The translations under genes and the position numbers were made by a program. Source: Scenedesmus sp. PABB004 (Eukaryota). From it: DNA of 64,000 nt. Positions 1,833-64,000 of this stretch are shown here, one piece after another (the first letter of the stretch is position 1; each line of letters begins with the position of its first letter). The stretch is taken from contig JABVCE010000013.1 in the NCBI GenBank assembly GCA_014905635.1, positions 1,116,001 to 1,180,000 on the forward strand, in the 5' to 3' direction. The notes under the pieces were generated by a model that saw nothing but the letters and a program-made list of their open reading frames with translations, was not told where the DNA came from and ran no database searches.

Positions 1833-4210
1833 ATGGCGCGCTCCCACGGCCTCGCGCTGGCCCTGGTGGCCGTGATTTTCCTCGGTGAGCGACGCGCGCT
1901 GACTGTGGCCGCGGCGCGGCGGGCGGCGGTGGCGCGCGGGCGCGGTCCCGCCCCCGCTCCCGCCATCGGCCGCCCGCGCCCGCTCGTTCCGGCGCCTGGC
2001 GCCGGCGGTGACGGCGCGAACGGCCTGACACGTGCCACAGAACTCACTGCCACCAAGACAGCGCCCCTGGGCGCTCGTGCGCGCCGCATCACGCCCTGTA
2101 CTGCTGCACTCACCGCCGCCCGCCACCGCCACCGCCACCGCCCCCGCCCTCTCTGCCCGCCCGCCCGACCACCGCAGGCGCGTCGCACCAGGCCGCCGCG
2201 GCGCGCTGGCTGACGCAGCTCACGCCCGCCGGCGGCTCGACCTGGGGCGCGCCGGCGCAGTACGGCGCGGCCGCGCTGCCGGCGCCGAGCGCGCTGCCGG
2301 CGCCGACCTTCCAGAGCGGCGCGGCCGGCGCCATTGAGATGCCACAGCTGCTGATGGGCGCCATGCCGGCGCCCAAGCCCACCGCGGTGCCGCTGCAGGC
2401 GACGCACGTGCAGCTGCCCGTCGGCGCGCCCGTTGCCGCGCCCGTGCTGCTGGCGCAGGCGGCCGCCGCCACGCCGGCGGGGTCGTTCGTGCCCGGCGCC
2501 GTCAGCACGGCGCCGCTGCCGCTCGGCACGCCCGTCGCGGCGGCGGCGCCCGCGGCCGCGGCCGCCGTGCCCCTCTCCCACGCGGCGCCGATGCCGTCGG
2601 CGGCGCAGCCCGCGGCGGCCGGCGCGCTCACCGCCAGCAACATGCGCACCGCCGCGCCCGCCGGCGCTGGCGCGGGCATGGTCAGCGTGCCCGCGAGCGC
2701 CAACCCGCTGGAGGCGCTCCGCGCGCTCGAGGCGCAGGCGCAGAGCTTCGTGCAGCAGCGCCTGCCCGGCATCGTGAGCGTCGCGAGCAACGTGCTGTCG
2801 CAGCTCAACGAGACCGCGCTGCCGCCGGGCATCGAGCGTCTGCTGCCGGCCGCCGGCGCCAACGCCACCGTCGCGTCCGTCCTCGACTCCCTCGCGTCGG
2901 GCAGCCTCAAGCTCCCCAGCCTTGCCAACCTCACCGCCGCGCTGCCCAAGGGCCTGCAGGGCCTGCGCCTGCCCGGCCTGCCCGGCGCGGGCGGCGCAGG
3001 CGCGGGCGGCGCCGGTGCCGCCGGCGCCGGCGCGCGCGGCGCGCCCGCCGCGCGCGCCGCGCCGCGCGTGGGCGCGCGCATGGTCGACGTCCACGACACC
3101 GCCGGCAACGTCATCTCGACCGTGCCCGCCGACAGCGAGCTGCGCTCCTTTGAGCCCGGGCCGCTGCGCTACTACAACCTGGCCGAGCAGGAGGCCCGTC
3201 TGCGCGCGCAGGCGGAGGCCATCCGCACGCGCGCCGAGCAGGGCGTGGACGTCGGCCTCACGCCCCGCGCGCCGCGCGGCGCCGCGGCCCGCCGCGCCGC
3301 CGCGCCGGCGGCGCCGGCCAAGACCGAGGAGGAGCCGGCGCACGCCAAGGCCGCGCCCGCGCACGCCAAGGCCGCCGCGCCCGCCAAGGCCGCCCCCGCG
3401 CCCGCGGGCGAGGACATCACCAAGCTCGCGCCGGCGGCGCCCGCGCGCCGCGCCGCGCCGCGCGCCGCCAAGGCGCACGCGGCGGCCGGCACCCCCGCCG
3501 ACCGCGACCGGCGCTTTGAGCTGGTGGACGGCAAGGTCGTGCCCGCCAAGCCCGCGGCCGCGGCGGCCGCGGCGGAGCCGACGCCCGCGGCCAAGCCCGC
3601 GCCCGCCAAGCCGGCGGAGCCCGCGTCCGCCAAGGCGGCGGAGCCCGCGCCCGCCAAGGCGGCGGAGCCCGCGTCCGCCAAGGCCGCCGAGCCCGCGCCC
3701 GCCAAGGCTGCGGAGCCCGCGCCCGCCAAGGCGGCCGAGCCCGCGCCCGCGAAGGCGGCCGAGCCCGCGCCCGCGAAGGCGGCCGAGCCCGCCGCCGCGC
3801 CCGCCGAGGCCGTGGAGGCGGTGGCGGTGGAGGTGGTGGCCGAGCCTGAGGCCAAGGAGATCGTGGAGGCTGAGGAGATTGTGGAGGCTGAGGAGGTGCG
3901 CGACCGCACAGGGCAGGGCCACCGACGGCGGGCCGCGCCCCGCCTGGCCGCGCGAGCGCTCGCGCGCCCGCGCCGCTCACGCGCCCGCCCGCCCGCTGCC
4001 ACCGCGCAGCCCGCCGCCGAGGCCGCCAAGCCCGCTGCTGCCGCTGCGGCGGAGCCCGCCGCCGCCGGGGCTGAGGCCGCCGACGAGCCCGCCGCTGCGG
4101 AGCCCGCCGCCGCTGTGGAGCCCGCCGCTGCGGCCGACGCGCCCGCCGCCGAGGAGGAGGCCAAGGAGGAGGAGGCGCAGTCCGCCGCGGCGGCCCCCAA
4201 GCACAGCTGA
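1833..4210 (+). CDS. Secreted Ala/Pro/Glu/Lys-rich repeat protein (putative cell-surface/wall protein)
   Basis: ATG 1833 gives the signal-peptide-like MARSHGLALALVAVIFLG. Intron 1885-2177 joins it in frame to ORF 2339-4210. Contains (PAPAKAAE)n repeats; TGTAA lies downstream at 4347. Confidence 0.75.
3590..3800 (+). repeat. Coding tandem repeat, 24-nt unit (PAPAKAAE/PASAKAAE), about 8 copies
   Basis: Repeated gcccgccaaggcggcggagcccgc-type units read directly from the sequence. Confidence 0.9.
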
Positions 4211-28203: not shown

Positions 28204-31200
28204 ATGGCGCACGCCCAGGTGCGGCCTGGGGGCTGGCGGGGGCGGCTCGGGGGGCGCGGCCCGCGGGCGGGCGCTGCGGCCCGCATCGCGCCCGACCTCC
28301 CGGCGCGCGTGCGGGCGCGCCCGGGCCGGGCACTGCCCGGCCCCAGCTCCCTCCCCCGCCCCTGACGCCGACCGGCCGCGCCCGCGACGACGCGCAGGCG
28401 TACGGGCCGCTGAGCTCGAGCCCCCTGGTCGGCGCGCACCAGCAGGGGGGCCTCAGCCTGGGCGGCGACGTCGGCAACGGGCGGTCGCGGCGCAACTCGC
28501 TGGAGCTCGCCCCCGGCGCGCCGGGGCTGTACGCTGAGGGCGGCGGCATGGCGGCGCTCAGGGGCGGCTTCAAGCACGGCCCGATGCAGGCCGGGCCCGA
28601 CGCGCTCGCGCTGCTGCTCGCCGACCCCGCGCTCGCGGCGGCGGCCGCGGCGGCGGCGGCCGCCGCGGCCGCCGCGGCGGCGGCGCCCAACGGCCTGCTC
28701 GGCCCGCCCTCGACGGGCGGCCTGGCGTGCAACGGCGGGCTGCTCGCGGGCGCGGGCAGCGGCGGCTACGACGGCCTGCAGCTCGACGCCGAGGAGCCGG
28801 GCCCGCTGCCCGTGCTGCCCCGCGGCGGCCGCGGCGGCCCGCCCGGCGGCTACGCCAACGCGGCGCTGATGCTGCAGCAGCAGCAGCAGCAGCTGCAGCA
28901 GCACCTCGCGCACGCCGGCTACGGCGTCGGCCTGCCGCTTGGCGGCGGCGGCGTTGGCCCCGGCGGCGCCGGGCGGCAGCCGCGCCCGCGCCGGCACAGC
29001 GTGACGATCGGCATGCTCAACGAGCACCAGCAGGCGGCCTTCCTGGCCAGCGGCGGGCAGCTGGGGCCGCCCGGCCCGGGCTGGCCTGGCGGCGGCGGCG
29101 GCGCGCCCCCGCGGCCGCCGCTGCTCCAGCAGCAGGCGTCGCCGAACAAGCAGCTGCACGGGCTGGGCGGCATGCAGTCCGCCGCGGCGCAGCTGCAGGG
29201 CATGCAGGCGGCGAGCCTGGGCCAGCAGCTCGGGCTCGGCGGCGGCGTGCCGCTGGGCGCCCTCGGCGGCCTCGGCGCGCCCGGCGGCGGCCTCATGGGC
29301 GGCGGCGGCGGCGGCCTGGACCTGCCGCCCGCGTACGGCATGGCCGGCCCGCGCATGCCCGGGCACGGCACGGCCGCGAGCCGGCGGCACAGCTGGGCGC
29401 CGATGGGCGCGGAGTCGTCCATGGCGTACGCGCGCGGCTGGCTGCTGCAGCAGCAGCAGCAGCGCAGCGCGGGCCTCGCGGCGCAGCTGGGGGACGCGGG
29501 GGCGCTGTTCGTCAACCAGCAGCAGGAGCACCAGCTCGGCCTCGCCCCGCTCGGCCCGCCCGGCGCGGCCGTGCACGGCCGCAACGGCAGCAACGGCTAC
29601 GCCGACGCGTCCGCCGCGTCGGCGGGCTTTGCGGCGGCGCTGCAGGGCGGCCAGGCGCCGTCGATGGCGCCCCCGGCGGCGCCGCTGCCGCTCTTCCCGG
29701 GCGAGCAGCTCGGCGCCAAGGAGGCGCTCGCGGCGCACCTGCAGCAGCAGCTCCAGCAGCTGGGGCTTCAGGGCTACGCCGGCGCGCGCGCGCTCGACCC
29801 GTACGCGGAGCCGTTTGTCAGCCAGACGGGCCTCGGCACGCTCGACCCCTACAACGCGCTGACGCAGGAGCTGCAGCAGCGGTCGCTCGCGCTCGCGTTC
29901 CCGCCGCCCGACGACGGCGGCCCCGGCGCCGGCGGGCCCGGCGGCGGCGGCGGCATGTACGCGCCGCTGCAGGTCAACGGCGTGAGCGTGGACACGCAGC
30001 TGCTTGTCGCGCCCTACGCCGACAACTGGGACGTCCTCGGCGGCGCGCCGGGGTCGCTCTCGGGGTCGTCCGGCTCCGGCTCGGCGCCGCCCGTCGGCGG
30101 CGGCGCCGGCGGCAAGGGCAAGGCGCTGCCGCCGGGCGCGCTCGGCGCGGCGCGCGGCGGGCCCGCCGCGGCGTCTGCGCCGCCGCCGCACGGCGCGCCG
30201 CTCAACGGCAAGTCTGGCGGCGCCGTGCCGGCGGCGGCCGCCGAGGCGGCCGCCGCGTCCATGCTCGCCTCGCTGCCGCCGCTGAGCAAGGTCTGCTCGG
30301 ACGAGCCCTGGGACCTCGCCAAGGCGGCCGAGGAGGACGCCAAAGCGCTCGCGGCGCAGCAGGCGGCGGTCGCGCGCCTCGCGGCGGCGCTGGAGCGCAG
30401 CACGACGCTGCAGGCGGTGCGCGCGGCCGAGGACGCGGCGGCAGAGGCGGCCGCGGGCGCCGGCGGCGCGCCCGGCGCCGCGCCCGGCGCCGCGCCGCGC
30501 GGCGCCGGCGCCGCGCCCAAGGCGGGCGAGCGCGGCGCGGCGCTGTTTGGGTACCGCCTGCCCGACAGCGGCGACGACACCTGGGGCGCCGCCGCGGCGG
30601 CCGTGCCGGCGTCGCTCGGCGGCGGCTGCATCAGCGAGGACCCGAGCAACAAGCTCTTCGTCGGCAACATCGGCTGGTGCGCCGCCGCGCATCGCGCGCC
30701 CACGCGCGGGCCCACGCCGCCGCCGCGCATGTGCGCCACGCCGCGCGTTTGCGCGCCGCGCCGCGCCGCGCCCACGCCGCCGCGCCGCGCAGGTGGGTGA
30801 CCGAGGAGGACCTGCTGCACTGGTTCGGCCGCTACGGCACGGTCACAAACGTCAAGGCGCGCGCCGCCGCCGCCGCGCCGCGCCGCGCTCCAAAGCCCGC
30901 GCCCGCACGAGCCCGCAGCGCGCGCTGCTCGCACGCACGCTCTCACACGCTCGCCCCCACGCCGCTCACACTCGCCCGTGTGCGCACACGCGCAGATCAT
31001 GTACAATTCGCGCAAGATGCACAAGCCCAAGGACAAGTGGCGCAGCCGCGAGTACGGCTTCATCGACTACGCGAGCCCCGAGGAGGCGGCCAAGGCGATC
31101 GTGTGGATGGACGGCGTGGAGCTGCCCGACCTCATGAAGGACACGGCGGGCATCATCGTGCAGTACGCGAAGCCCACGGGCGCGGGCGAGGCCGGCGCGG

Positions 31201-46994: not shown

Positions 46995-48187
46995 TCACGA
47001 CACGAGCACCTTGTCGGCCCAGCTCAGCATCATCTGGCGCCCGATGCTGGGCAGGTCGGACACGACCTGCTGCACGAGCCGCCCCGGGCTCACGTCGGCC
47101 TGCAGCAGGCCCAGCACCTGCCGCACCTCCTCCACGTGTAGCTGGTTGTCCTCCGTCAGCGCCAGGATGGCCTGTGCGCGGCGCACGCACGCGGGCGGGG
47201 TGAGCGGCGCACGCGGGGGTGAGCGGCGCACGCGGGCGCGGGTGAGCGGCGCGGCGCAGCACACAGCTCGCGCGGCCCGCGCAGGCGCGCGCAGGCGCGC
47301 CGGGGCCCCACCCACCTGGCGCCGGAGCTTCTCGTCCACCATGAGCAGCCGCGCCGCATCGCGGACGGTATCGCTGAGGTCGAGCCCCCGCGCGCCGCTG
47401 CCGGCGCCGGTGCCGGCGCCGGCGGGGCTGCCCGGCCGGCTCGGCGGCGCCGCGCCGGGCATCGCCATCGCGCCGCCGCTGCCCTCGCGCGCGAGCGTGA
47501 TGAGGTTGGTCAGCCGCGCCCACTGGAACTTGCCGCCCTGAAAGAGCACCTGGATCAGGCGCTCGCGCAGCGCGGGGTCCTCGTCCGTCAGCAGGCGCCT
47601 GCGGCGACGGCGGCGGCGCGAGCGCGCGCGCGGGCGGCGGCGGCGTGAGCGCGCGCGGCGCGCGCCGGCGCGCGCGACGCGCGCGCGCGCGACGCGCGCG
47701 TGGGCCCCACGCGCCGCGCGCGTGGGCCAGCGCCGCGGCGGCGGCGGCGGCGGGCGGCGGGCGGCGGGCGGGCGCACCGCGCGACGTAGGGGTAGGCGAC
47801 CTCGAGGAAGTGGAACTGCGGCTTGAGCGTCATGCAGATCCCCTCCTGCGTCAGCAGGCTGCGGATGACGAGGCTGTAGCGCTCCGGGATGCTGCGGCGG
47901 GACGCAGGCGGCGCGGCGGGTGAGGCGCGGGCGGCCGCGGGCGGCGGCGCGCGCGGTGCCCGACCAGGGGGCGGGCGAGCGCGGCGCGGCGGCGGCGGCG
48001 CGGCGCGGCGCGGTGAGCGGTGCAGCGCGCGCACCGGATGGGGTACTGGTACACGAGCTCGTTGAACTTGCTGGTCACGGTGCGGAAGTTGAAGTCGGCG
48101 AGGCTCTGGCCCTTGGAGTCGCGCCAGATGTTCTCCAGCGCCGGCACGATCGGGCTGATGTCGGTGCCTGGAGGAGGGCCGCGGCGC

Positions 48188-48227
<40 letters not shown>

Positions 48228-50758
48228 GCGTGCGTGAGCAGGGGCGCGAGTGCGGCGCGGCGCCGACCCCCGCGCCGAGCCGCCGCGCAGCGTGGGCGCC
48301 GGCCTGCGCGCACCCGCTGAGAGGAAGCCGAGCTTGATGAAGTCGCCTGCCATCTCATCATAGTCCTCGTTCACCGCGTGCACCACGGCGTCGATCAGCA
48401 CCTGGCGGGCACAACGAGGGGCAGCCGCGGGCGGGCGCGGGCCGCGCGTCAGCGTCAGCGTCAGCGGCGCCGCGCGCGGCGGGGCGGCGGCGCGGCGCCG
48501 GCCGGTGCGCGCGCCTGCTTGTTGGAGTTGCTGAGCTGCGCGACGTTGCCAAAGTCGACGTACGCGATGCGGCCGTCGGCGAGGCAGAAGATGTTGCCCG
48601 GGTGGGGGTCGCCGTGGAAGAGGCCGAACTCCAGCAGCTGCCGCAGCCCGCTCACCACGCCCACGCTGCGCGCGCGTGCCGGGCGGGGGCGCGCCGCGTC
48701 AGCCCGCCGCCGCCACCGTTGCAGCGGCCGCGGCCGCCGCCGCCGCGCCCGGGCCTGCTGCGCCGCGCCGCCGCCGCGCCCGGGCGTGCGTCGCCGCGGC
48801 CGCACCGGATGAACTCGTCCACGTCCACGCCGCTGCTGCGGATGCCGGCGATGTCGGTGCAGCGCGTGCCCTCGATCCACTCCATGACGACCACCTTGCT
48901 CCCGCACAGGTCGCGGCGCACCCAGGGGATCTTGACCGACGCGTCGCCCGCAAAGTTGCGCCCAAACTCCTCGATGTTGCGCGCCTCCTGCGCGGCGGCG
49001 CGGCGGGCTGGGCGCGCGCCGCGCTGCCGCGAGTGCGCCGAGCGGGGCGCCGCAGCCGCCGCCGCCGCCGCGCATGCGCGTGCGCGTGGGCGCTGCCGCG
49101 CCGCGCGCCTGCATGTAGTCGAGCTCCTCCAGCAGCTTCTGCCCAAACTCGTCCACCACGAGCTCCGCGTTGCAGCCGAGGCGGGCGCGGGAGAGCGCGT
49201 TGAAGAGGCTGCCGAGGCCCCGGAACACAAACAAGTCCCGCAGGATGATCGGCTCGATGCCCGGGCGCTGCACCTTGACCGCGACCTCCTGCCCGCCGTC
49301 GCGCAGCACCGCCTTGTACACCTGAGGGCGCGTGAGGGCGTGGCGGCAGGCGCGCGCGCGGTCAGCGCGGCGGCGGCGGCGGCGGCGAGGCGGGCGCGGC
49401 GCGGCCCGCGCGCGCGGCGGCGGCCGACGCCGCGCGGCGCGCGCCTGGCCGAGCGACGCCGCGGCGACGGGCTGCTCGCTGATGCTGCTGAACACCGCCT
49501 CGAGCGGCCGGCCGAGCTGCTCTGCGATGATCGCAAACGCCTCCTCGTCAGGGAACGGCGGCACGTCGTCCTGCGCGGCACGCGCGACGCGGCGAGGGTT
49601 GGCGGCGCGCGCGGCACGGCGCTGCGTGGGTGCGCGTGCGCGCACGGGCCCCGGTCGCCCGCCTCTCCCGCCCCCTGTCCGCCCTCCTGCTGCTCGCCCG
49701 CCCTCGTGCAGGCCCTCCTCCCGCGCGCCTGCAGGATGCAGAGCTCATTCATGTAATCCTCGCGCACAATGTCCGGGCGGTTGGCCAGCACCTGCGCGCG
49801 CGCGTTGCACGGTCAAACGCCGCCACCGCCGCCGCAGCCGGCGCGCCGCCGCGGGCTGCGCCGCCGCCCCACGCTGCGCCCGCGCCCGAGCCTTGGGCCC
49901 GCCGCGCCGCGCCGCGCCTGGCCGGCCTTGATGAAGCTCGGGCCGAGCTCGGTGAGCGTCTCGCGCAGCTGCTGCGCGCGGCGGCGCACGATCTCGGGGC
50001 TGTCCTCGCTGCCGGTGAGGCGGTCAAACGCGAGGCAGGCAAAGTAGCTGCCCAGCGCGGTGACGATGTGACCCACGCGCGCCTGCGCGGCGGCGCGGGT
50101 GCGACGCGGCGGCGCGCGCGCGCGCGCCCGTGAGGCGCTGCAAGGGCGAGCCCCGCGGCCGCGCGCCCCTGCCCGGGGCCTCTGATGCGCGCGCGCGCAT
50201 GGCGCTCACCGCGACCGCAAACGCGTCGCCCGGGGAGCGCAGCGCGCGGCTGCGCACGTACTCCGGGCTGTACTTGGAGATGAGGTTGCACATCTGCTTC
50301 TCGTCCTCCAGCAGCTCCAGGCTGCCGCGCCGCTGCTCCTGCGGCTGCCGGCTGCGGCGGCGGCCGCGCGGGCGCGCGGGCGCGTGAGCGCCAGGCTGCG
50401 CCGCCGCTCGGGCAGCGCCGGCGCTCGGCGCCGGCGCTCGGCGCCGCTGCTGCCGGGCGCGCGTGGCGAACCCCCGGGCACGACGGCGGGGCGCGGCGCG
50501 GGCCCCCCTCGCGGCGCGGCCGCGCGCTGTGGCGCGGGGGCCACCACCACAATCGTGCGCCGCGCCTGCGCCGCGCGCCCGCCAGAGAGCGCGGCCCAGC
50601 GGCGCGTCCCCCGCAGCTCAGAGCGCCCGCCCGCACCTGGGCTTCAGCGGGCGCGCCGTGGCGGGCAGGGGCGTGCGCGCGAGCGCGGAGGCCGCGGCCG
50701 CGCGGGCCACCGGCGCCCGCCGGCCGGCGGGGCGGGGCCGCAGCGCGCCCGGCTGCAT
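46995..50758 (-). CDS. ABC1K1: Plastoglobule ABC1 atypical kinase, ABC1K1/PGR6-like
   Basis: [76 protein letters not shown], YVDFG; about 13 exons. Confidence 0.92.
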
Positions 50759-57192: not shown

Positions 57193-58902
57193 TCACACCG
57201 TGGGCCCGTCGGTGAGCGCGGAGAAGCCGAACCGGTCGACGTCGCAGCCGTACCAGCGGCTCACGGCGTCAAAGCACACCTCCGCGCCCGGGTGCGCGTA
57301 GGGGTCGCTTACCGCGCCCGCGCGCACGTTCTTCTGCTCCAGCGGCGCGACCGGCAGCTCCGGCACGGACGGGTCGCGCCGCGCGTTGAGCTCGCGCACG
57401 ACCTCGGCCCAGTCCTCGTTCGGCTCGTCCACGCGGCCGACGAAGTCGACCGCCCAGTCGCCGCCCGCGGTGCGCATGCAGTGCGCCTGCAGCGGCGCGC
57501 AGAGGCGGCGCGGCGGCGGCGGCGCTCGTGGCGCGCGCGGCCGCGGCGCCTGGCAGGCGGCCGGGTGAGCCGCCGGCTCTCCGCCAGCATCATCATCATC
57601 CTTACGAGCAGCTGTATAGCTAAAAAAACAGCTGTGCATCATCCAGTCAGATGACTTGCTGTGAGCCCCTTTGGTCGGCCGCACCTGGTCGGTCATGTGG
57701 AAGTAGAGGTAGCTCTTGCTGCGCTTGATGCAGCCCCGGTCGTGCAGCGCCTCGGCCGCGGCCCACGGGTCGGCGCAGAACGACGCCCACGGCACGTGGC
57801 ACGCCGGGTCCCGCAGCTTGTCGCTGCGCGGCGGACGGCGCGGGCGCCGCGGCGGGGCGTGAGCCGCGCCGCGCCGGCCGCCGCGCCGCGCCGGCCGCCG
57901 CCGCGCCGGCCGCGCTGCGCGCCCGCGCCCTGCCGCCACCGCGCGCCCTGCCGCCGCCGCGCGGCGCGCGCGGCGCCGCGCCGCGCACTCGTGCATGCAG
58001 CCGTTGGAGTGGAGGTACTTGTAGAGGCTGTACGCGCGGCGCCAGGGGTTGCGCACAAAGCCAAACACAAAGTATTCCTTCCACGTCGCGCTGAGGCTCT
58101 GCAGGTCGAGCTCGGTCGCGTTCCAGTAAAAGTGGAGGACCATGCAGCTGCTCGCGTTGTGCCCCGCCGTCGCCCGGTTGTTGCACTCGCCGAGCACGTT
58201 GACGATGCTCGTGCTCGCGGCCTTGGGGCTGCGCACGTAGATGTACTTGTACCTGGTGGGAGGCAGGCAGGCGCGCGCGGGGCGGGGGCGCGGGCAGGCG
58301 AGGCGCGGGGCTTGGTGGTGCTGTGCGCGCACAGCGCGGCGGCGGCGGCGACGGAAGCAGAGGGCCGCGCGCGCGGCGGGGCCGCGCCGCCAGCCCCGCC
58401 GGCGCGCGCGGTCGGCGCGCGCGGCTCGCTCACTTGTGGTTGACGAACACGTGGCAGCCGGGGAAGGGCAGCGGCGGGTGGTCGGGCGCGGCGCAGGTGT
58501 AGCTGTCGGCCGTCGCGGGCCCCGGCCCGCCCGCGGCGGTGCGGTTGACGCGCCAGGAGATGAACGCGTCGAGCCGCGCGTCCGAGTGCGCGCCCAGCCA
58601 CGCGCGCGGGTCGGTCACGCCCGCCTTGGCCACGCGGCCGTGCACCGCGGGGCGGCGCGGCAGCGCGTCGGCCGACGACCGCACGTCGGCGCTCACGTCG
58701 ACGAAGCGCGCGCCGCCCGCCGCGCCGGCGGCGCCCGCGGGCGGCCCCGCCGCGCCCTGCTCGTGCAGCGAGCGCGCCATGCCGCCCGCGCCGAGCTGCG
58801 CCGTCGCGCCGGCGCCCGCGCCGGCGCCGGCCGCCTCCGCGGCGCGCGCGGCCTTGCTCTGCAGCGCCGCCACCGCGGCTGCGAGCGGCTCAAACGGGGG
58901 CT

Positions 58903-58933
<31 letters not shown>

Positions 58934-59149
58934 CGCTGCGTTGTCACTGCTGCCGCCGCCGCCGCCGCCGCCGCGCGCCGCCAAGAAGCTGTGCAGCTGC
59001 ACGACGCCCGCTAGCAGCAGGAGCGCGCACGCTGCGAGCGCGGCGCCGCGTGCCGCGCGCGCCGGCCAGCGCGCGGCCGGCCGCGGCGCCGCGCCCGGGT
59101 AGCTCGCGCGCAGCCGCGGCAGGCTGCCGCTCGGCGCGCCCTTCAGCAT
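57193..59149 (-). CDS. Type II membrane carbohydrate sulfotransferase (Sulfotransfer_2 family)
   Basis: N-terminal TM anchor; 5'-PSB YVRSPKAASTS; 3'-PB FGFVRNPWRRAYS; HMTDQ; DFVGRV; terminal Y..D..RFGF. Confidence 0.88.
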
Positions 59150-59725
59150 GCCGTCCGGCCGGCGCCGCCGCTGCCGCCGCCGCTGTCGCCGCCGCCGCGC
59201 GCGGGGGGAGCCAGGGGTGCGGCGCGCGGTGCCTCGCCGCGCGCCGCGCCGCGCCCGCTGCCGGCGGCCCGCACCCTGCGCGTCCTGCGGGCGCGGGTGC
59301 GTGGGCGGGGGTTGAGGCCGCGGGGGTGGGGAGCTGCGAGCATCGGCGTCACCGCGCGGGCGCCGCTGCGGGCAGCTAGCGCCCCGGCGGCGCGCGGCGG
59401 CCGCCCCGCGCGGTCCGGACGCCTGCGCTGCCTGGAGATGGCACCCGCAGCCGGCCTGCCGCGGCGTGCTGACGCGGCACGGCGCGGCTGGGCGCGAGAC
59501 GCGCGGCATGGCCGCGCAGCCGCCCAACCACCCCGCGCGCGGCGGCGCCGGGCCCGGCACCGATGTCTGCGTGACCGGGGCGAGCCGCAGCCGGCGCGGC
59601 GCGGCCCAGACCCCGCGTTTGCGCGGTGCCGCACCCGAGTCTACTGCTCGCGCCGGTGGTGACCGGCGCGCTGCTCTCTTCGCTCCACGCCTAAATAAAA
59701 ACGCCAAGAGAGCAGGGAGACGCAA

Positions 59726-60042
59726 CAACCGGCTCGAGTTCAGCCGCGGCGAGGGCCTCGTGCCCGGCGGCGCGGACGGCGCGTAGGCCGGGGCGTGCGC
59801 GGCGGCGAGCGGCGTCGGCCCCTAGGCCGGGACTTTGCGCAGTCCACAGTCGACGGACAACGCGGCGCCGCGGCCGCGCGCGCCGGCGCCGGGCTCGGGG
59901 CGCGGTCCAGCGCGGCTGCGACGCCGCCGCCCGCGCTCCGCCGCGGCGGTGTCCCCGCGAGCGCCCGCCCAGCCCCCCAGTGTTACCGCGCTCATCTCGT
60001 GTCCCTGTGGCACCCTGAGGCGTCGCAGCAGCGAGAGGCGAG
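59726..60042 (+). repeat. Duplicated copy of the subtilisin gene's last codons plus downstream region (27521-27857)
   Basis: Direct-orientation near-identity with small indels; still encodes NRLEFSRGEGLVPGG..GA*. Confidence 0.95.
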
Positions 60043-60366
60043 GTTTCGAGAGCGTGGGCATGGCAGCACCCACGCGCCGCACCCGCGCGCCCGTCGCGCA
60101 CGGCATGGCGTCCGTGTGGGTCGCCCGACACCGACGCGTGCCGCTCCGCCGCGGCGCGCTGCCGCGTCCGGGGCGGGCGGGGTTGATCGACATCTGCGCC
60201 GCGCCGCCCGCTGCCCGGCGCCCCGCGCAGGCCCGCTCCTGGCGAGCGATGGGCCGGAGGAGGGGGTTATGGGCGGGGGTGAGCGCCCGCGCCGCCGCGC
60301 CGCCGCGCCGCCGCCGCTGCTGAGATGGGCGGCGGCAAGCGCCCGTGCCGCTGCTGCGCATGCGCA

Positions 60367-60469
60367 CGGCACGCCGTGGAAGAACACCAGGCTGCGTCGC
60401 GTGGTCTTCCACGGCGTGCCGCGGAAGAACACCAGGCGACGCAGCCTGGTGTTCTTCCACGGCGTGCCG
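60367..60469. repeat. Inverted repeat, perfect 34-bp arms, with a structured 35-nt spacer
   Basis: 60367-60400 cggcacgccgtggaagaacaccaggctgcgtcgc is the exact reverse complement of 60436-60469. Confidence 0.95.
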
Positions 60470-61075
60470 AACGGCAACTGCGCGCTGCACCTGCTCGCCG
60501 CGGTGCGGCGGCGCCTGCTGCACCTGCTGCGCCTGGCGCCCGGCGCCGACGTGGTGGCTTTGTGCTCTCGCTCGCCGACCCCGAGGGAGGCGGTGCTGAT
60601 CGGTGCTCCTTCTTGACCGCCGCCGAGCTGCGGCTCTGCTCTGCGTCGCGCACCGCCTGCCGGCGTCCTCGAGCGCCGCGCCGTCGAAGCTGGGCGCGGC
60701 GGCCTCGCAGGCGGCGCCCGGCGGCGGCGGCGAGGAGGGCGGTGCCCCGGCGGCGGGCGGCGCCAGCGCCGGGCCGTCCGCCGGCAGCGCCGCGGCTGGC
60801 AGCGACGAGGTGGGGGGCCCGGCGGCGGGCCCGCCGCAGCAGCCGCAGCAGCAGCAGCAGCAGCAGCAGCAGCGGCGGCGCAGCCGCAAGAAGCGCCGCG
60901 GCAAGGGCAACGGTGCCGCAGCGCACAGCAGCGCAGGCTGGCTGACGGCCGCCGCTGCGCCGCGCCCCGCAGGCACGGTGGTGCGCCGCCTGCGCAGCGC
61001 GCTGGCGCGCGCGGCGCGCGTGGGGCGGCCCGCCCTGCCCGCGGCGCTGGTCAACGCGCGCATGCACCTCATCAA

Positions 61076-61202
61076 CTGCCGCCGCTGCACCGCGCGGCGG
61101 GTGCTCACTCGCAGGCGTAGTACGTCATGAGCTCGTGCGCCTGCAGCTCGTGACGTTCTACGCCTGCGCGTGAGCGCCCGCCGCGCGGTGCAGCGGCGGC
61201 AG
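61076..61202 (+). ncRNA. Intronic pre-miRNA-like hairpin (58-bp stem, 11-nt loop)
   Basis: Arms 61076-61133 and 61145-61202 are complementary with 4 differences (2 become G-U on +). Lies inside predicted intron 61020-61214. The structure is certain; ncRNA function is inferred. Confidence 0.5.
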
Positions 61203-61356
61203 CGTGTGTTGCAGGACCTGATTTTTGCTGTCACGAGCCTGCCAGGGCGGCAGTTTATGTTGGCAACGCGCATCCCAGGGGAGCTGCAGCGCATGCTGCC
61301 GCTCTTTTGGGCGGCGACGGGCGCGGCCGCGGCGGAGCTGCCGCGCTGGGTGAGCC

Positions 61357-61450
61357 CCGCGGGTGGCGCGCGTGCAGGCGCACGTTGAGCGCAAACAGCC
61401 GGGTGTAGCCTTTTGCACTCAACGTGCGCCTGCACGCGCGCCACCCGCGG
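61357..61450 (+). ncRNA. Mirtron-like intronic hairpin (33 perfect bp plus extension)
   Basis: ccgcgggtggcgcgcgtgcaggcgcacgttgag pairs with ctcaacgtgcgcctgcacgcgcgccacccgcgg and fills most of predicted intron 61350-61460. Function is inferred. Confidence 0.5.
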
Positions 61451-62010
61451 CTGCGCCAAGCTGGGCAGCGCGCTCGTGTGCGCCGTGCTGGCGAAGAGCC
61501 CCGCCGCGTGGGATGCGGCGTGGCAGCCGGCGGAGAAAGTCCAGCGGCGGCGGCGAGGCGGAGGCGCGCCGCGCGCTGGAGTTTCTGCGGCGCCACGCGC
61601 TGGCGCTGCGGCTCGAGCTGCTGCGGCCGCTGCCGCCGCAGCACGACCCCGACGCCGCAGCCGGCGACGGCGACGCGGCGCCCGGCGGGCCGGCGGCGAC
61701 CGCCGCTGCCGGCGCGCGGGACCGCCCGCCGCCCGCCGGCCGCGCGGAGGACCTGCAGGCCCTGGGCCGACGGCGGACCTGTAGACGTGGCTGCTCGCCG
61801 GCCGCGGCTCGGCGCACGCCGGCGGTGGCGGCAGCGACGGCGGCGGCGGCAGCAGCGGCTGGCGCGCGGCGATGGAGGCGCCGCCGCCCGCGGACGCGCC
61901 GGCCGACCCCGGTGCCAACGACGACGCAGAGCAGCAGCCGGCCCAACAACCGAGCCACGCGCAGCGCCTGGACGCGCTGCGTCAGGCGCGGCGGCAGCAG
62001 GCGCGGCGGC

Positions 62011-62101
62011 AGCAGGGCGAGGCAGACGCGGCCCACCGCGAGGCCGACGCAGCGGCTGCGTTCGGCGACCTGGCGGTGGGCCGCGTCTGCCTCGCCCTGC
62101 T
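62011..62101. repeat. Inverted repeat, perfect 29-bp arms
   Basis: 62011-62039 is the reverse complement of 62073-62101; further imperfect pairing occurs inside the spacer. Confidence 0.95.
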
Positions 62102-62176
62102 CCCCCACTGCCGCCGCCTGCAGGCGCGAGGTGAAATAATTCGCAGAGCTTCCTGCAGGCGGCGGCAGTGGGGGAG
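62100..62176. repeat. Inverted repeat, perfect 25-bp arms, with an AT-richer 27-nt loop
   Basis: ctcccccactgccgccgcctgcagg (62100-62124) versus cctgcaggcggcggcagtgggggag (62152-62176). Confidence 0.95.
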
Positions 62177-62376
62177 TGGCGGCGCCGCGCGCCAGGCGCG
62201 GCCGTGGTGCGGCAGGTGCAGGGGCTGCCGCTGCTGGAGCTCGCCGCCACGCCGCGGGTCGTGGCGCAGCGCGCCGCGAGCGTGCCCGGGCCGTCGGCGC
62301 CACCTTCGCGCCTCGCGGCGCTGCAGCAGCTCAAGGCCGACACGGCGGCCGCCCAGCAGCGCCTCGCTGCGCTGGC

Positions 62377-62579
62377 GGTGCGGCTTGGCGGCGACGTGCT
62401 GCCCGGCGCGCTGGTTGCGAGGCCGCCTGCCTGGCCTCCCTGCGCGCCTCGTAGAGCTTGTGACGCGCTGCTGGGCCAACCTCTACGAGGCCCGCAGGGA
62501 GGCCAGGCAGGCGGCGCTCGCAGAGGTGCGGCTTGGCGGCGACGTGCTGCCCGGCGCGCTGGTCGCGAGGCCGCCTGCC
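62377..62579. repeat. ~55-bp direct repeat enclosing a 39-bp inverted repeat
   Basis: ggtgcggcttggcggcgacgtgctgcccggcgcgctggt(t/c)gcgaggccgcctgcc occurs at ~62377 and ~62525; arms 62422-62460 and 62477-62515 have 2 mismatches. Confidence 0.93.
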
Positions 62580-63240
62580 GCCGCGCTGGGCGCGCTGGCG
62601 GACGCGCGCGAGCAGCTCGAGGCGGCCGCGTGGCAGCAGCAGGCGGCGCCGGGGCCCCTGGCTGCAGTGTGGCCCGGCGCGCAGGCCGCCCACGCGGCCC
62701 TCGCCGGCGCGGGCCAGCAGCTGGGCGAGGCGCGGGCGCGCGCGCTGCGCTTTGCCGGGCGGCACCTCGGCGATCATGTCGCTGCGGCGGCCGCGCAGGA
62801 GCGCGCGTGGCACCCGCCGGCGGCGCTGCCGGCGGCGCCGCCGCAGAGCCTGGCGGCGGCGCGCGAGCTGCTGGACCGGCTGGACGCCGTCCTCCAGCAC
62901 CTCCGCCTGGCTGCGCCGCGCGGCTGAGCTGCAGGCCGACATCGCCGCCGCTGCCCTGCGCCAGCGCAACCCGGGGTTGCGAGTCGACGCGGCGTCGCGT
63001 GCGCGCGCGGCCGCGTTTGCCCCCGGCGTGGACGACGCGCTGCTCGAGCGCCTGCGCAAGCTGAGGGCACGCGGCGCGCTGCAGGTCGAGCGTGTCGCGG
63101 TGCAGGTGCCCCTGGGCGCTCTCGAAACGGTGCAAGTGCACCCGCCCGTAGCGCTGGGCGAATGCTCGACAAACGGCTACGACGCGTGCGTGGCGCGGGT
63201 GTGCGCCGACCCGGCCGCCGCCGCCCGCGCGCCGGCTCCC

Positions 63241-63290
63241 GAGCCGGGCTCGAGCGACGCCGAGCCGGGCTCGAGCGACGCCGAGCCCGG
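63241..63290 (+). repeat. 21-bp tandem repeat (EPGSSDA x2 plus a partial copy)
   Basis: gagccgggctcgagcgacgcc is repeated. Confidence 0.85.
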
Positions 63291-63408
63291 GCTGGCGCCG
63301 ACGCCCGACCCCGCGGCGGCGGCGGCGGCTGCAGCGGCGGCGGCGCCGCCGTCGCGCGACCCGCTGCCGCCCTGGCGCCGGCCCGCCCGGCCCGGCCCCG
63401 CCGACCGC

Positions 63409-63456
63409 CGCGCGGTGTCGTCGGCCTTGAACGTTCAAGGCCGACGACACCGCGCG
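63409..63456. repeat. Perfect 48-bp palindrome with no spacer
   Basis: cgcgcggtgtcgtcggccttgaac|gttcaaggccgacgacaccgcgcg, centre 63432/63433, checked base by base. Confidence 0.97.
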
Positions 63457-64000
63457 CGCGCAGGCCGCGCTCGCCGCCGGCGGCGCAGTCCTCGACGCCG
63501 TGTTTGACCCCGCCCGGCCGGCCGCGCCGGCGGCCGCGGCGGCGGCGGCGGCGGCGCCCGGCACGCGGCGATGTCGCCGAGGCGGGGGTCCCAGCCGAAC
63601 ACCAGCGCTGGGGGCGCACGCTGGTGTTGGCGCTGTCGCACCCTGCCTACGGCTGCACGCGCCGCGCGCACCGCCGCGCAGCACCGCTGCCCCGCCGCGC
63701 ACGACGCGCGGGGCGGCGCCGACGTGGTGACGCTGTCGACGCGGGGGTATCGGGACGCATCAGCACGGGGCGGAGGGGGGCCGGGGCGGGGGCACGTCGG
63801 TGCGTTTGCGCGCGCGCAGGAGGGCCTGGCCACGCGCGCGCCGCGGCAACTTCCTGGCCGCCGCCGACGCGGCGGGCGCGCGCGTGGGCCTGTTTGACCG
63901 TGCATTTTCTGTCTACGGCTGCATGCATGCGTGGGAGTTTCGGGTGCACATGCTGAACGACAAGGAGATGCACCGGGTTAATTTTTCAACGCATTCGTCA

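Follow-up and report, generated by a model that had tools for sequence, protein, structure and literature searches.

The last few kilobases of a 64-kb window (the whole stretch of DNA analysed here, 64,000 nucleotides long) raise the question of how seven strong hairpins came to be packed within one gene of a very GC-rich green alga. A previous sequence-only reading had hesitated between a cluster of small-RNA precursors and a hotspot of fold-back mutagenesis. Our best reading is that the hairpins are mutational scars, neither inserted elements nor an evolved RNA gene, and more specifically they are probably a cluster of insertions made by fold-back or template switching, such as break-repair synthesis produces, lying in a long exon of a now-broken orphan gene.

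Clustering and folding of the hairpins

A repeat search of positions 59000-64000 recovered every arm pair of the seven fold-backs listed previously, hereafter H1 to H7 from left to right. In the stem scan over the whole window (loop of at most 40 nt, with a score of at least 20 as the threshold for a hairpin), six hairpins were found within 60300-64000 and none in the remaining 60.3 kb, in agreement with the earlier remark that the preceding 60 kb hold no comparable stem; the seventh, at 62100, was left out of the scan count solely through a two-base overlap with its neighbour, and the top stem score outside 60300-64000 is 18, reached by a simple GC repeat. Moreover, the whole window has nine exact local inverted repeats of at least 20 nt within 600 nt, seven of them being these hairpins; simple repeats of pure G/C, at 28658 and 54934, make up the rest. 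In simulation, thirty sequences of 64 kb drawn from the second-order composition of the window gave maximum scores of 12-16, with 0/30 reaching 20, while the real hairpins score 24-37.

When folded as RNA, the seven hairpins have energies of -54 to -131 kcal/mol and z-scores of -8.5 to -15.5 against dinucleotide shuffles, and for each of them none of 200 shuffles folds as well. Each folds as a single hairpin of precursor size, which is a criterion of shape only, and across the seven the stems measure 24-58 bp and the loops 0-35 nt. The sequences are mutually unrelated, as had been noticed before: self-BLAST returned their own inverted hits and one direct repeat only, and no second copy of any hairpin within the 64-kb window.

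The host frame and its templated insertions

The host is a long former exon on the + strand at 60711..63559, recognised by its codon-position profile and by reconstruction, and it belongs to an orphan gene rich in Ala, Arg and Gln. In our reading there are also a probable ordinary intron at 60554-60710 (+) and a possible first exon (+) starting at the ATG at 60269. Similarity searches found no family or relatives of the host gene, and the sequence as it stands is interrupted by 4, 8 and 7 stops in the three frames, so that the description of the gene as unknown and frame-disrupted stands. When nine scars are taken out (320 nt, comprising copy arms, a 26-nt insertion and two single bases), one frame of 843 codons with 0 stops is restored, where about 7-8 stops would be expected by chance at the same base composition according to our own estimate. 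The GC content of this frame at the three codon positions is 0.86/0.65/0.92, and every 30-codon window has a third-position GC (GC3) of 0.73-1.00. An earlier version of the reconstruction, with 662 codons, had 0 stops as well; same-length random removals were stop-free in 3/949 trials, and 0/949 matched its contrast between GC3 and GC2.

The reconstruction is partly circular, in that the two single-base events were placed to restore the frame, with the exact bases of the frameshifts at 61545 and 62910 chosen by us, and the boundaries of H2 and H7 were moved 1-2 nt from the arm ends; boundaries come from the repeat structure alone only for H3 (39 nt), H6 (79 nt), the 26-nt insertion and H4/H5 (83 nt, within a 4-nt repeat). 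The ancestral sequence was deduced from codon periodicity and open frames alone, and the arms of H1, H4 and H5 are indistinguishable by codon statistics; where such statistics fail, the original arm was chosen by continuity with the flanks.

All of the scars are described here on the + strand. H1 (60367..60469) is a nested fold-back with arms at 60367-60416 and 60420-60469, which are 50 nt long and 90% complementary with a perfect 34-nt outer pair (-100.7 kcal/mol, z -15.2). We read its insertion as 60367-60435, 69 nt, in frame and without a stop, composed of three pieces templated on 60436-60469 (inverted 34 nt, direct 17-21 nt, inverted 15 nt), where the exact matches are 60367-60400/60436-60469 inverted, 60405-60421/60453-60469 direct and 60423-60437/60444-60458 inverted. 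The segment 60436-60469 is read as the original coding sequence, and the right arm has a GC3 of 10/11 in the frame of the following exon. H2, with arms of 58 nt at 61076-61133 and 61145-61202 (93% complementary; -131.2 kcal/mol, z -15.5), is read as two steps, in which 61101-61134 (34 nt) was inverted from 61135-61170 and 61171-61202 (32 nt) from 61076-61107. Its loop and inner right arm have a GC3 of 12/12 in phase 1 versus 5/12 in phase 0, a TGA lies in the left arm, and the frame stays open when the 34 and 32 nt are removed. For H3 (61357..61450; arms 61357-61395 and 61412-61450, 39 nt, 97% complementary), the left arm is read as an inverted copy of 61412-61450, with the loop and right arm as original coding sequence. 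In GC3 the left arm, which holds a TGA, reaches 6/13 and the loop plus right arm 15/18 in the frame of the following exon, and taking out exactly the 39-nt arm preserves phase 0.

Further downstream, the codon-position GC profile, the three-frame view and the reconstruction place a single-base frameshift without hairpin at 61545 (phase 0 to 1), and the latter two place a 26-nt insertion at 61759-61784, within 61749..61784, bounded by a 10-nt direct repeat with the copies GGACCTGCAG and GGACCTGTAG; its removal takes phase 1 back to phase 0, and the second repeat copy gives a TAG in phase 0. H4 (arms 62008-62049 and 62063-62104, 42 nt, 90% complementary) has a perfect 29-nt core at 62011-62039/62073-62101, and H5 has arms of 25 nt at 62100-62124 and 62152-62176 that are 100% complementary. 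Together, in the region 62008..62176, these perfect 29-bp and 25-bp stems mark one compound insertion of 83 nt at 62073-62155, made of inverted copies of the upstream 62011-62039 and the downstream 62152-62176 plus a 27-nt AT-rich filler, and bounded by a CCTG repeat at the original palindromic CCTGCAGG; without the 83 nt, phase 0 is joined to phase 2. No local template was found for the filler, whose longest matches in the window are 10 nt and far away, and a search within the window likewise identified no template for the 16-nt loop of H3 or for 16 nt of the 26-nt insertion.

In the region 62378..62579, H6 (arms 62422-62460 and 62477-62515, 39 nt, 95% complementary) is accompanied by a direct repeat, and its insertion at 62378-62456 (79 nt) begins with 54 nt copied directly from 62526-62579 and continues with 62481-62515 copied in inverted orientation, with the 10-nt microhomology GCCGCCTGCC at the join. 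The repeats are 62377-62431/62525-62579 direct and 62422-62444/62493-62515 inverted, the copy arm has a GC3 of 4/8 versus 21/23 in the loop and right arm, and removal of the insertion joins phase 2 to phase 0. A second single-base frameshift without hairpin follows at 62910 (phase 0 to 1; GC profile, sequence and reconstruction). H7, finally, is a perfect 48-nt palindrome without spacer, with arms of 24 nt at 63409-63432 and 63433-63456 (100% complementary), and we read 63409-63433 (25 nt) as an inverted copy of 63434-63456 plus the central CG. In the whole H2 palindrome and in H7 third positions map onto third positions, so that the call for H7 rests on the differing phases of its flanks: GC3 is 34/36 in phase 1 upstream and 32/34 in phase 2 from the right arm onward, and the needed shift of +1 is supplied by the 25 nt.

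Taken over the locus, the inverted copies adjoin their templates, with exact inverted matches of 23-34 nt in 7/7 hairpins within about 200 nt, and where the geometry permits the test (H2, H3, H6 and H7) only one of the two arms looks coding in the adjoining exon's frame. The suggestion of a hotspot of fold-back mutagenesis is accordingly supported, for the arms repeat the gene's own adjoining coding sequence in inverted form, several insertions consist of two or three templated pieces, and their deletion gives one long open frame. Counted over the former frame, there are eight templated insertions (25-83 nt) and two single-base indels, with no substitution that creates a stop, and such an insertion-skewed spectrum is at odds with slow neutral decay. 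Counting against our best reading, the frame shifts are offset in neighbouring pairs (+1 with +26, and +83 with +79), a cancelling that might reflect selection to keep the frame open instead of plain decay.

Candidate mechanism and alternative readings

In the mechanism that we infer, the locus began as a single long coding exon on the + strand, part of a lineage-restricted orphan gene. At each of six sites spread over 3.1 kb, a growing DNA strand may have quit its template and folded back or jumped to the opposite strand; that strand would then have copied 23-58 nt of nearby sequence in reverse complement before rejoining the template, and in two cases (H1 and H6) a direct-orientation stretch would have been copied in addition. 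Such a process would be fold-back or template-switch insertion as in break-repair synthesis, MMBIR-like or Pol-theta-like, with the 26-nt insertion and the two single-base frameshifts lying in the same tract, and it would leave a broken reading frame and, if transcribed, an RNA with seven very stable hairpins matching the gene's own coding sequence. There are precedents in the portions of the literature drawn on here: template switching creates perfect hairpins in one step (PMC10710096), and hairpin mutations by intra- or inter-strand switches in replication are described (PMC10710096, PMC8794818); double-strand breaks in yeast receive fold-back inverted insertions, mostly of about 5-34 bp (PMC11724301); templated insertions at breaks arise by MMBIR or Pol-theta end joining (PMC2621351, PMC8421209, PMC7165422); and template switches and 1-bp indels abound in repair synthesis (PMC12891019; PMC3039667).

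Several features of the scars bear on this mechanism. The copy lies 5' of its template in 6/7 hairpins, a polarity that is not statistically significant alone and that fits a single synthesis direction, with a nascent minus strand growing leftwards; possibly, all events stem from one error-prone repair tract or a short burst. Serial template switches are present within H1, H6 and H4/H5, and microhomology is seen at H6 (10 nt), at H4/H5 (CCTG in a palindromic octamer) and at the 26-nt insertion (10 nt), with none seen at H3. The arm identities are 93-100%, which is not proof of equal age. The arm mismatches adjoin the loops and the outer stem parts are perfect, as in H2 with 26/26 in the outer 26 bp versus 28/32 in the inner 32 bp (four mismatches), which is expected if the fold-back nucleates at, or extends, an older imperfect repeat. 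A bolder version, which we entertain only tentatively and consider improbable as a whole, is that a single burst of serial template switching in break repair made the string of seven hairpins out of one long exon and its own coding sequence, and thereby at once, if it is transcribed, a self-aimed polycistronic hairpin-RNA precursor, together with the early birth of spliceosomal introns where GT...AG is present. Why the events cluster in one particular gene is a point for which our best reading offers no explanation.

The hairpins might instead be carried by spliceosomal introns of a working gene, namely newborn introns made of duplicated exon sequence whose removal leaves the mature mRNA intact, and we hold this to be unlikely. 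Candidate GT-AG introns of the right length modulo 3 can be drawn at four hairpin sites: 61101-61214 (114 nt, G/GTGCTC ... TTGCAG/G, with slashes at the junctions), 61350-61460, 62076-62158 (83 nt, G/GTGGGC ... CTTCCTGCAG/G) and 62378-62456 or 62378-62525 (the latter 148 nt, G/GTGCGG ... AG/G). Three candidates measure 111-148 nt, and the nine introns of the ABC1-kinase gene in the window measure about 113-179 nt by hand count; in addition, one of the four arm mismatches of H2 is the T that gives the candidate 5' site GT and not GC. As the local splice signals of some of these intervals are good and their lengths plausible, a small share of the probability stays with splicing and a gene that still works. 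However, there is no room for an intron at three or more of the frame changes (about 61545, 61759-61784 and about 62910), so that the gene is still broken as assembled, and third-position GC inside the candidates stays exon-like and in phase with the adjoining exon, so that they are not old introns. Moreover, 61350-61460 requires an AAG acceptor whereas CAG closes 9/9 reference introns, the candidates of 79 and 83 nt both fall below the shortest reference intron, and in the H2 candidate the 5' splice site would be hidden within a 58-bp stem. The predicted introns in which the sequence-only reading had placed the hairpins are therefore at best partly right: old introns hosting hairpins disagree with the codon periodicity of the interiors, while newborn introns of exon sequence would fit, if they are spliced at all.

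A functional small-RNA locus, that is, a polycistronic precursor cut by a Dicer-like enzyme into miRNAs or siRNAs, is improbable in our estimation. It is compatible with the proposed mutational origin, and the geometry described above, in stems, loops and energies alike, suits Dicer substrates; as the arms copy the gene's own exons, the small RNAs would have as their target the gene itself (self-silencing) or paralogues not seen here. In the parts of the published work considered here, template switching is a documented source of new miRNA hairpins (PMC10710096), and Chlamydomonas DCL3 makes most miRNAs, cutting them from introns and UTRs within coding RNAs, and also reduces mRNAs bearing stem-loops in coding or non-coding exons (PMC4817775). 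Against this, a young and unselected state is suggested by the near-perfect arms and by the stops and frameshifts in the host frame, the bulges and asymmetry typical of evolved miRNA precursors are absent from the stems, and self-BLAST found no paralogue or target within the window. All 20 Rfam matches at E <= 1 are below the gathering score (the best has 45.7 versus 78 bits), and they fall in unrelated families, 19/20 being animal or plant miRNAs and 1/20 a bacterial sRNA, several on both strands of one hairpin; the likeness is of shape only, with no match to a described miRNA family. As for mirtrons, in 0/7 hairpins do the ends coincide with a candidate GT or AG: H3 begins 7 nt past a GTGAGC and ends 10-18 nt short of the nearest AG, and the arms of H2, H4, H5 and H6 extend into coding-like sequence.

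It is likewise improbable that the fold-backs are artefacts of assembly, amplification or library construction, produced in vitro by a template-switching polymerase (for example in whole-genome amplification) or by a poor consensus at a thinly covered contig end. In favour of an artefact, the indels and fold-backs are limited to the last 3.7 kb of the window, and strand-displacing polymerases make inverted chimeras, a recognised product in vitro. Amplification chimeras usually carry on in the inverted direction, whereas the insertions here are short, several contain two or three switches, and they rejoin the original path exactly. The loop-proximal position of the arm mismatches also argues against an artefact, one arm mismatch and a C/T difference in the repeat of the 26-nt insertion suggest later substitutions, and no frameshifts appear in conserved genes elsewhere in the window; in the ABC1-kinase gene 11 kb upstream, for example, every exon can be aligned to homologues without a frameshift, which speaks for the local assembly quality. 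Small fold-back transposons, either MITE-like or introners, or a palindromic repeat family are very improbable, for though terminal inverted repeats form hairpins and introner elements occur in some GC-rich algae, the seven sequences are unrelated and without a further copy in the 64 kb, on reading of the sequence 0/7 are flanked by a target-site duplication, the arms run into and copy the adjoining coding sequence, and, as weak evidence, exact-match scans of a metagenome collection with two queries (the unique stretch between H2 and H3, and the H5 filler) found neither.

Comparison with known systems

Template switching and fold-back repair are already known as a source of single hairpins. 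A dense run of hairpins fixed in one gene, if true, would be a natural record of error-prone repair synthesis in an extremely GC-rich genome, and the locus is unusually readable because codon periodicity tells the original arm from the copy. It could give a concrete example for two long-discussed origins, that of hairpin small-RNA genes from a gene's own sequence and that of introns from break-repair insertions; if the fold-backs prove to be artefacts, the locus is a warning for assemblies of such GC-rich genomes.

Introners, MITE-type elements and the GC-rich palindromic repeats of organelles are similar in being short, hairpin-forming insertions that interrupt genes; unlike them (multi-copy, with shared sequence and usually with target-site duplications), the insertions here are unique, locally templated and nuclear. 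In the inverted-duplication model, plant MIR genes are born as a perfect fold-back from a copy of gene sequence, and as in that model, small RNAs from the fold-backs would match the source gene; however, the plant duplicate of the target lies at a separate locus, while here 23-58 nt are duplicated in cis, inside the copied gene. The hairpins of Chlamydomonas DCL3, as far as they are described in the cited part of PMC4817775, resemble ours as long, near-perfect hairpins in a protein-coding transcription unit of a chlorophyte-like alga, and differ in that ours are formed by the host's own coding sequence, interrupt its frame, have no similarity to a known family and are known from DNA alone.

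There is also a likeness in make-up to the break-end and template-switch mutations. As in the fold-back, MMBIR and Pol-theta insertions at break ends described in the cited excerpts, the templates of the inverted duplications lie no more than tens of bases from the junction, with microhomology at the switches, two- or three-piece insertions from the same locus and 1-bp indels in the tract; those cases are experimental or somatic, follow a single induced break and are in yeast mostly about 5-34 bp, while here the insertions stand in an assembly, reach 83 nt and occupy six sites. The template-switch cases presented in the portion of PMC10710096 used here are isolated, genome-wide and deduced with an outgroup, whereas here seven occur in 3.1 kb of one frame and are deduced without one; moreover, those are replacements, and ours are mostly net insertions of 25-83 nt, two of them with direct copies. 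In other features the two agree: the inverted copy adjoins its template, the perfect pairing would come from one event, the hairpins have the size of pre-miRNAs, and the looped (intrastrand) and the spacer-free (interstrand) forms are both present.

The hairpin cluster and its host gene

All seven fold-backs that the sequence-only reading had reported were recovered in their places by a repeat search, and they are denoted here as hairpins H1 to H7. H1 (60367-60400 with 60436-60469, 34 nt) is perfect and has a further structure nested inside, H2 (61076-61133 with 61145-61202, 58 nt) is 93% complementary, and H3 (61357-61395 with 61412-61450, 39 nt) is 97% complementary; H4 (62011-62039 with 62073-62101, 29 nt) and H5 (62100-62124 with 62152-62176, 25 nt) are perfect, H6 (62422-62460 with 62477-62515, 39 nt) is 95% complementary, and H7 (63409-63432 with 63433-63456, 24 nt) is perfect and spacer-free. 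The same reading had noticed no comparable stem earlier in the window, and indeed a scan of the whole window for stems with a loop of up to 40 nt and a score of 20 or more gave six hairpins after 60300 and none before, H5 being absent from this count solely through its two-base overlap with H4, while the best score outside the cluster was 18, in a simple GC repeat. Among exact local inverted repeats of at least 20 nt there are nine in the window, namely H1-H7 and two pure G/C repeats. Moreover, in 30 simulations of 64 kb that kept the second-order composition of the window, peak scores were 12-16 as against 24-37 for the real hairpins, and the folding energies of H1-H7 as RNA range from -54 to -131 kcal/mol (z-scores from -8.5 to -15.5). 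The cluster is real and far beyond chance.

The window has a G+C content of 75-83% in every 2-kb bin and of about 0.9 or higher at third codon positions, and all six frames stay largely open for hundreds of codons, so that coding frames must be read from codon-position GC and ORF lists are useless. Pfam matches were obtained for 10 of the 22 frames selected by periodicity, including two WDR19/IFT144 propellers, Pan3, Gar1/Naf1, a CPP1-like chaperone of POR, an ABC1 kinase and a sulfotransferase. The ABC1 kinase is nearest to plant and green-algal proteins, with Chlorella sorokiniana as the top algal match (48% identity), and a protein homologue search found no near-identical relative of it. 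The DNA is thus nuclear and from a flagellate-capable green alga whose proteins the databases lack. A 24-nt-period tandem array at 3612-3768 lies within a long open frame whose repetitive Pro/Ala/Lys-rich protein has a sub-threshold Cornifin-like Pfam match.

In the host gene, a coding signal by codon-position GC runs on the + strand from about 60436 to about 63560 with its phase changing repeatedly. Its upstream neighbour is the Sulfotransfer_2 family gene on the opposite, - strand (57196-58614, Pfam E 2.3e-07), and the sequence becomes AT-richer around 59600-59750 and 63900-64000, as though at the intergenic bounds of the host. Pfam gave no family at E <= 1 for 11 in-frame pieces of the host, phmmer, run against 1.84 billion representative proteins, gave no match for the 380-residue frame 61785-62924, a word-indexed search with the C-terminal piece, limited to longer proteins, gave none among 8000 candidates, and the ESM Atlas gave no usable match for the N-terminal piece. 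Exact-match metagenome scans likewise returned no locus for a unique 24-mer between H2 and H3, and none for the filler of H5. A likeness of the N-terminal 'GNC' motif to OTU proteases was left without support. By these searches the host is an orphan gene rich in Ala, Arg and Gln, and the earlier description of it as unknown and frame-disrupted is borne out. It also contains in-frame tandem duplications at 63239-63287 (21-nt period) and 61983-62013 (15-nt period), which, in contrast to the fold-backs, are coding minisatellites of an ordinary kind.

Templates of the inserted segments

Each hairpin is a local copy of the adjoining sequence. No target-site duplication was found at any of the seven, there is no likeness among them or to any other part of the window, and no paralogues or repeat copies exist within the window. 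For example, the H1 insertion (60367-60435, 69 nt) consists of three pieces, inverted 34, direct 17-21 and inverted 15 nt, all templated by the next 34 nt. The H6 insertion (62378-62456, 79 nt) begins with 62526-62579 copied in direct orientation and continues with 62481-62515 copied in inverted orientation, and the 10-nt junction GCCGCCTGCC is common to both pieces. H4 and H5 form one insertion of 83 nt (62073-62155), which holds inverted copies of the upstream 29 nt and the downstream 25 nt together with a 27-nt AT-rich filler, and its site is the palindromic CCTGCAGG with a CCTG repeat as bounds. No local template was found for this filler, and the search for a source of the non-templated fillers gave matches of 10-12 nt only.

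Where the geometry permits, the G+C at third codon positions (GC3) tells the original arm, i.e. the former coding sequence, from its inserted copy. In H3 the loop and right arm have 15/18 against 6/13 in the left arm, which also holds a TGA; in H6 the loop and right arm have 21/23 against 4/8 in the left arm; in H2 the loop and inner right arm have 12/12 in phase 1 against 5/12 in phase 0; and around H7 the values are 34/36 in phase 1 upstream and 32/34 in phase 2 from the right arm onward. H2 is best read as having a two-step origin: 61135-61170 would first have been copied in inverted orientation (34 nt), and the hairpin so formed would then have primed the inverted copying of 61076-61107 (32 nt); such a formation would explain why the outer 26 bp are perfect and the inner 32 bp have four mismatches. 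Six of the seven hairpins have their copy placed 5' to the template; in H4 it was taken from the far side, which is what a jump between strands would produce.

The H2 loop of 11 nt and one further base form a 12-mer (61134-61145) that recurs 290 nt downstream in both H3 arms (61423-61434 and 61373-61384). The recurrence is suggestive, as the 12-mer might be one more templated piece that connects both events, but no weight is placed on it, because a composition like this one yields many local 12-mer matches (15-80 per 4 kb).

Reconstruction of the former frame

Nine segments, 320 nt in total, were removed and the result was evaluated over 60711-63559. They are 61101-61134 (34 nt) and 61171-61202 (32 nt) of H2, 61357-61395 (39 nt) of H3, the single base 61545, 61759-61784 (26 nt, bounded by the repeat GGACCTGYAG), 62073-62155 (83 nt) of H4/H5, 62378-62456 (79 nt) of H6, the single base 62910, and 63409-63433 (25 nt) of H7. 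Repeat structure by itself fixes how much was removed at H3, H6, the 26-nt insertion and H4/H5, while the H2 and H7 boundaries were shifted 1-2 nt from the arm ends and the two single bases were placed so as to restore the frame. The frame then has 843 codons without a stop, with GC1/2/3 of 0.86/0.65/0.92 and a GC3 of 0.73-1.00 in every 30-codon window; the sequence as it stands has 4, 8 and 7 stops in the three phases. A first reconstruction, with both arm and loop of H2 and H3 removed, was open too, at 662 stop-free codons; random removals of the same lengths were stop-free in 3 of 949 trials, and none matched its GC3-GC2 contrast. It was dropped as third-position GC marks the loops as original coding. 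The locus was probably one long exon.

Adjacent shifts of frame offset each other, 61545 (+1) with 61759-61784 (+26) and 62073-62155 (+83) with 62378-62456 (+79), which returns most of the host to genomic phase 0. The pairing could be accidental (about 1 in 9), could mark the two ends of one repair patch each, or could reflect selection to keep the frame open. The mid-gene scars at 61076, 61357, 61545, 61759, 62073 and 62378 are spaced 188-314 nt apart, roughly regularly, though the events are few.

Origin of the cluster

The templated insertions within 3.1 kb number eight, each 25-83 nt long, and H1 upstream makes nine; beside them there are two 1-nt indels and, in the former frame, no stop-creating substitution. 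Such a mutation spectrum is what error-prone break-repair synthesis yields, as are serial switches, a common polarity and the microhomologies seen at some of the junctions, and we therefore read the cluster as probably the scars of such synthesis. Possibly a single synthesis tract moving leftwards could have left all of them. Published work describes fold-back inverted insertions formed at yeast breaks (PMC11724301), abundant template switches and 1-bp indels in repair replication (PMC12891019; PMC3039667; PMC2621351), and perfect hairpins arising in a single step by template switching (PMC10710096). The fold-back mutagenesis hotspot, which the sequence-only reading had offered as one alternative, thus gains support from locally templated insertions whose removal leaves one open frame.

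It is conceivable from the sequence that some of the hairpin-bearing intervals are newborn introns, since they have respectable splice signals, the candidates being 61101-61214, 61350-61460, 62076-62158 and 62378-62456 (or 62378-62525); however, at least three frame changes leave no intron room, and the candidate interiors retain an exon-like codon-position GC. For reference, two homologues of the ABC1-kinase gene (47000-50100, - strand) were aligned to the window and the junctions read, giving nine introns of about 113-179 nt (counted by hand), none with a long stem inside. All nine end in CAG, and their 5' ends are G|GTGCGC, or G|GCGCGC in four; this share of GC-AG introns (G|GCGCGC ... CAG|G) is very high and presumably tied to the 80% G+C genome, and CTGAC or CTCAC are likely candidate branch sites.

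A miRNA or mirtron cluster, the other proposal of that reading, is not favoured. In Chlamydomonas, DCL3 cuts stem-loops of mRNAs whether these lie in introns, in UTRs or even in coding exons (PMC4817775), so the locus, if transcribed, would be a plausible substrate, and the products of such cutting would match the host gene itself; however, the Rfam matches are to unrelated miRNA families and are sub-threshold, on both strands and at shape level only. An in-vitro or assembly origin of the fold-backs is unlikely. The homologue alignment finds no frameshift in the ABC1-kinase exons, and therefore the assembly is sound at least at that gene. Old introns hosting the hairpins are rejected on third-position GC, by which the loops are original coding sequence.

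The proposed mechanism, break-repair synthesis with template switching, is of a known kind; unusual here are how densely its scars would lie in a single gene and how clearly the former frame can be read back.
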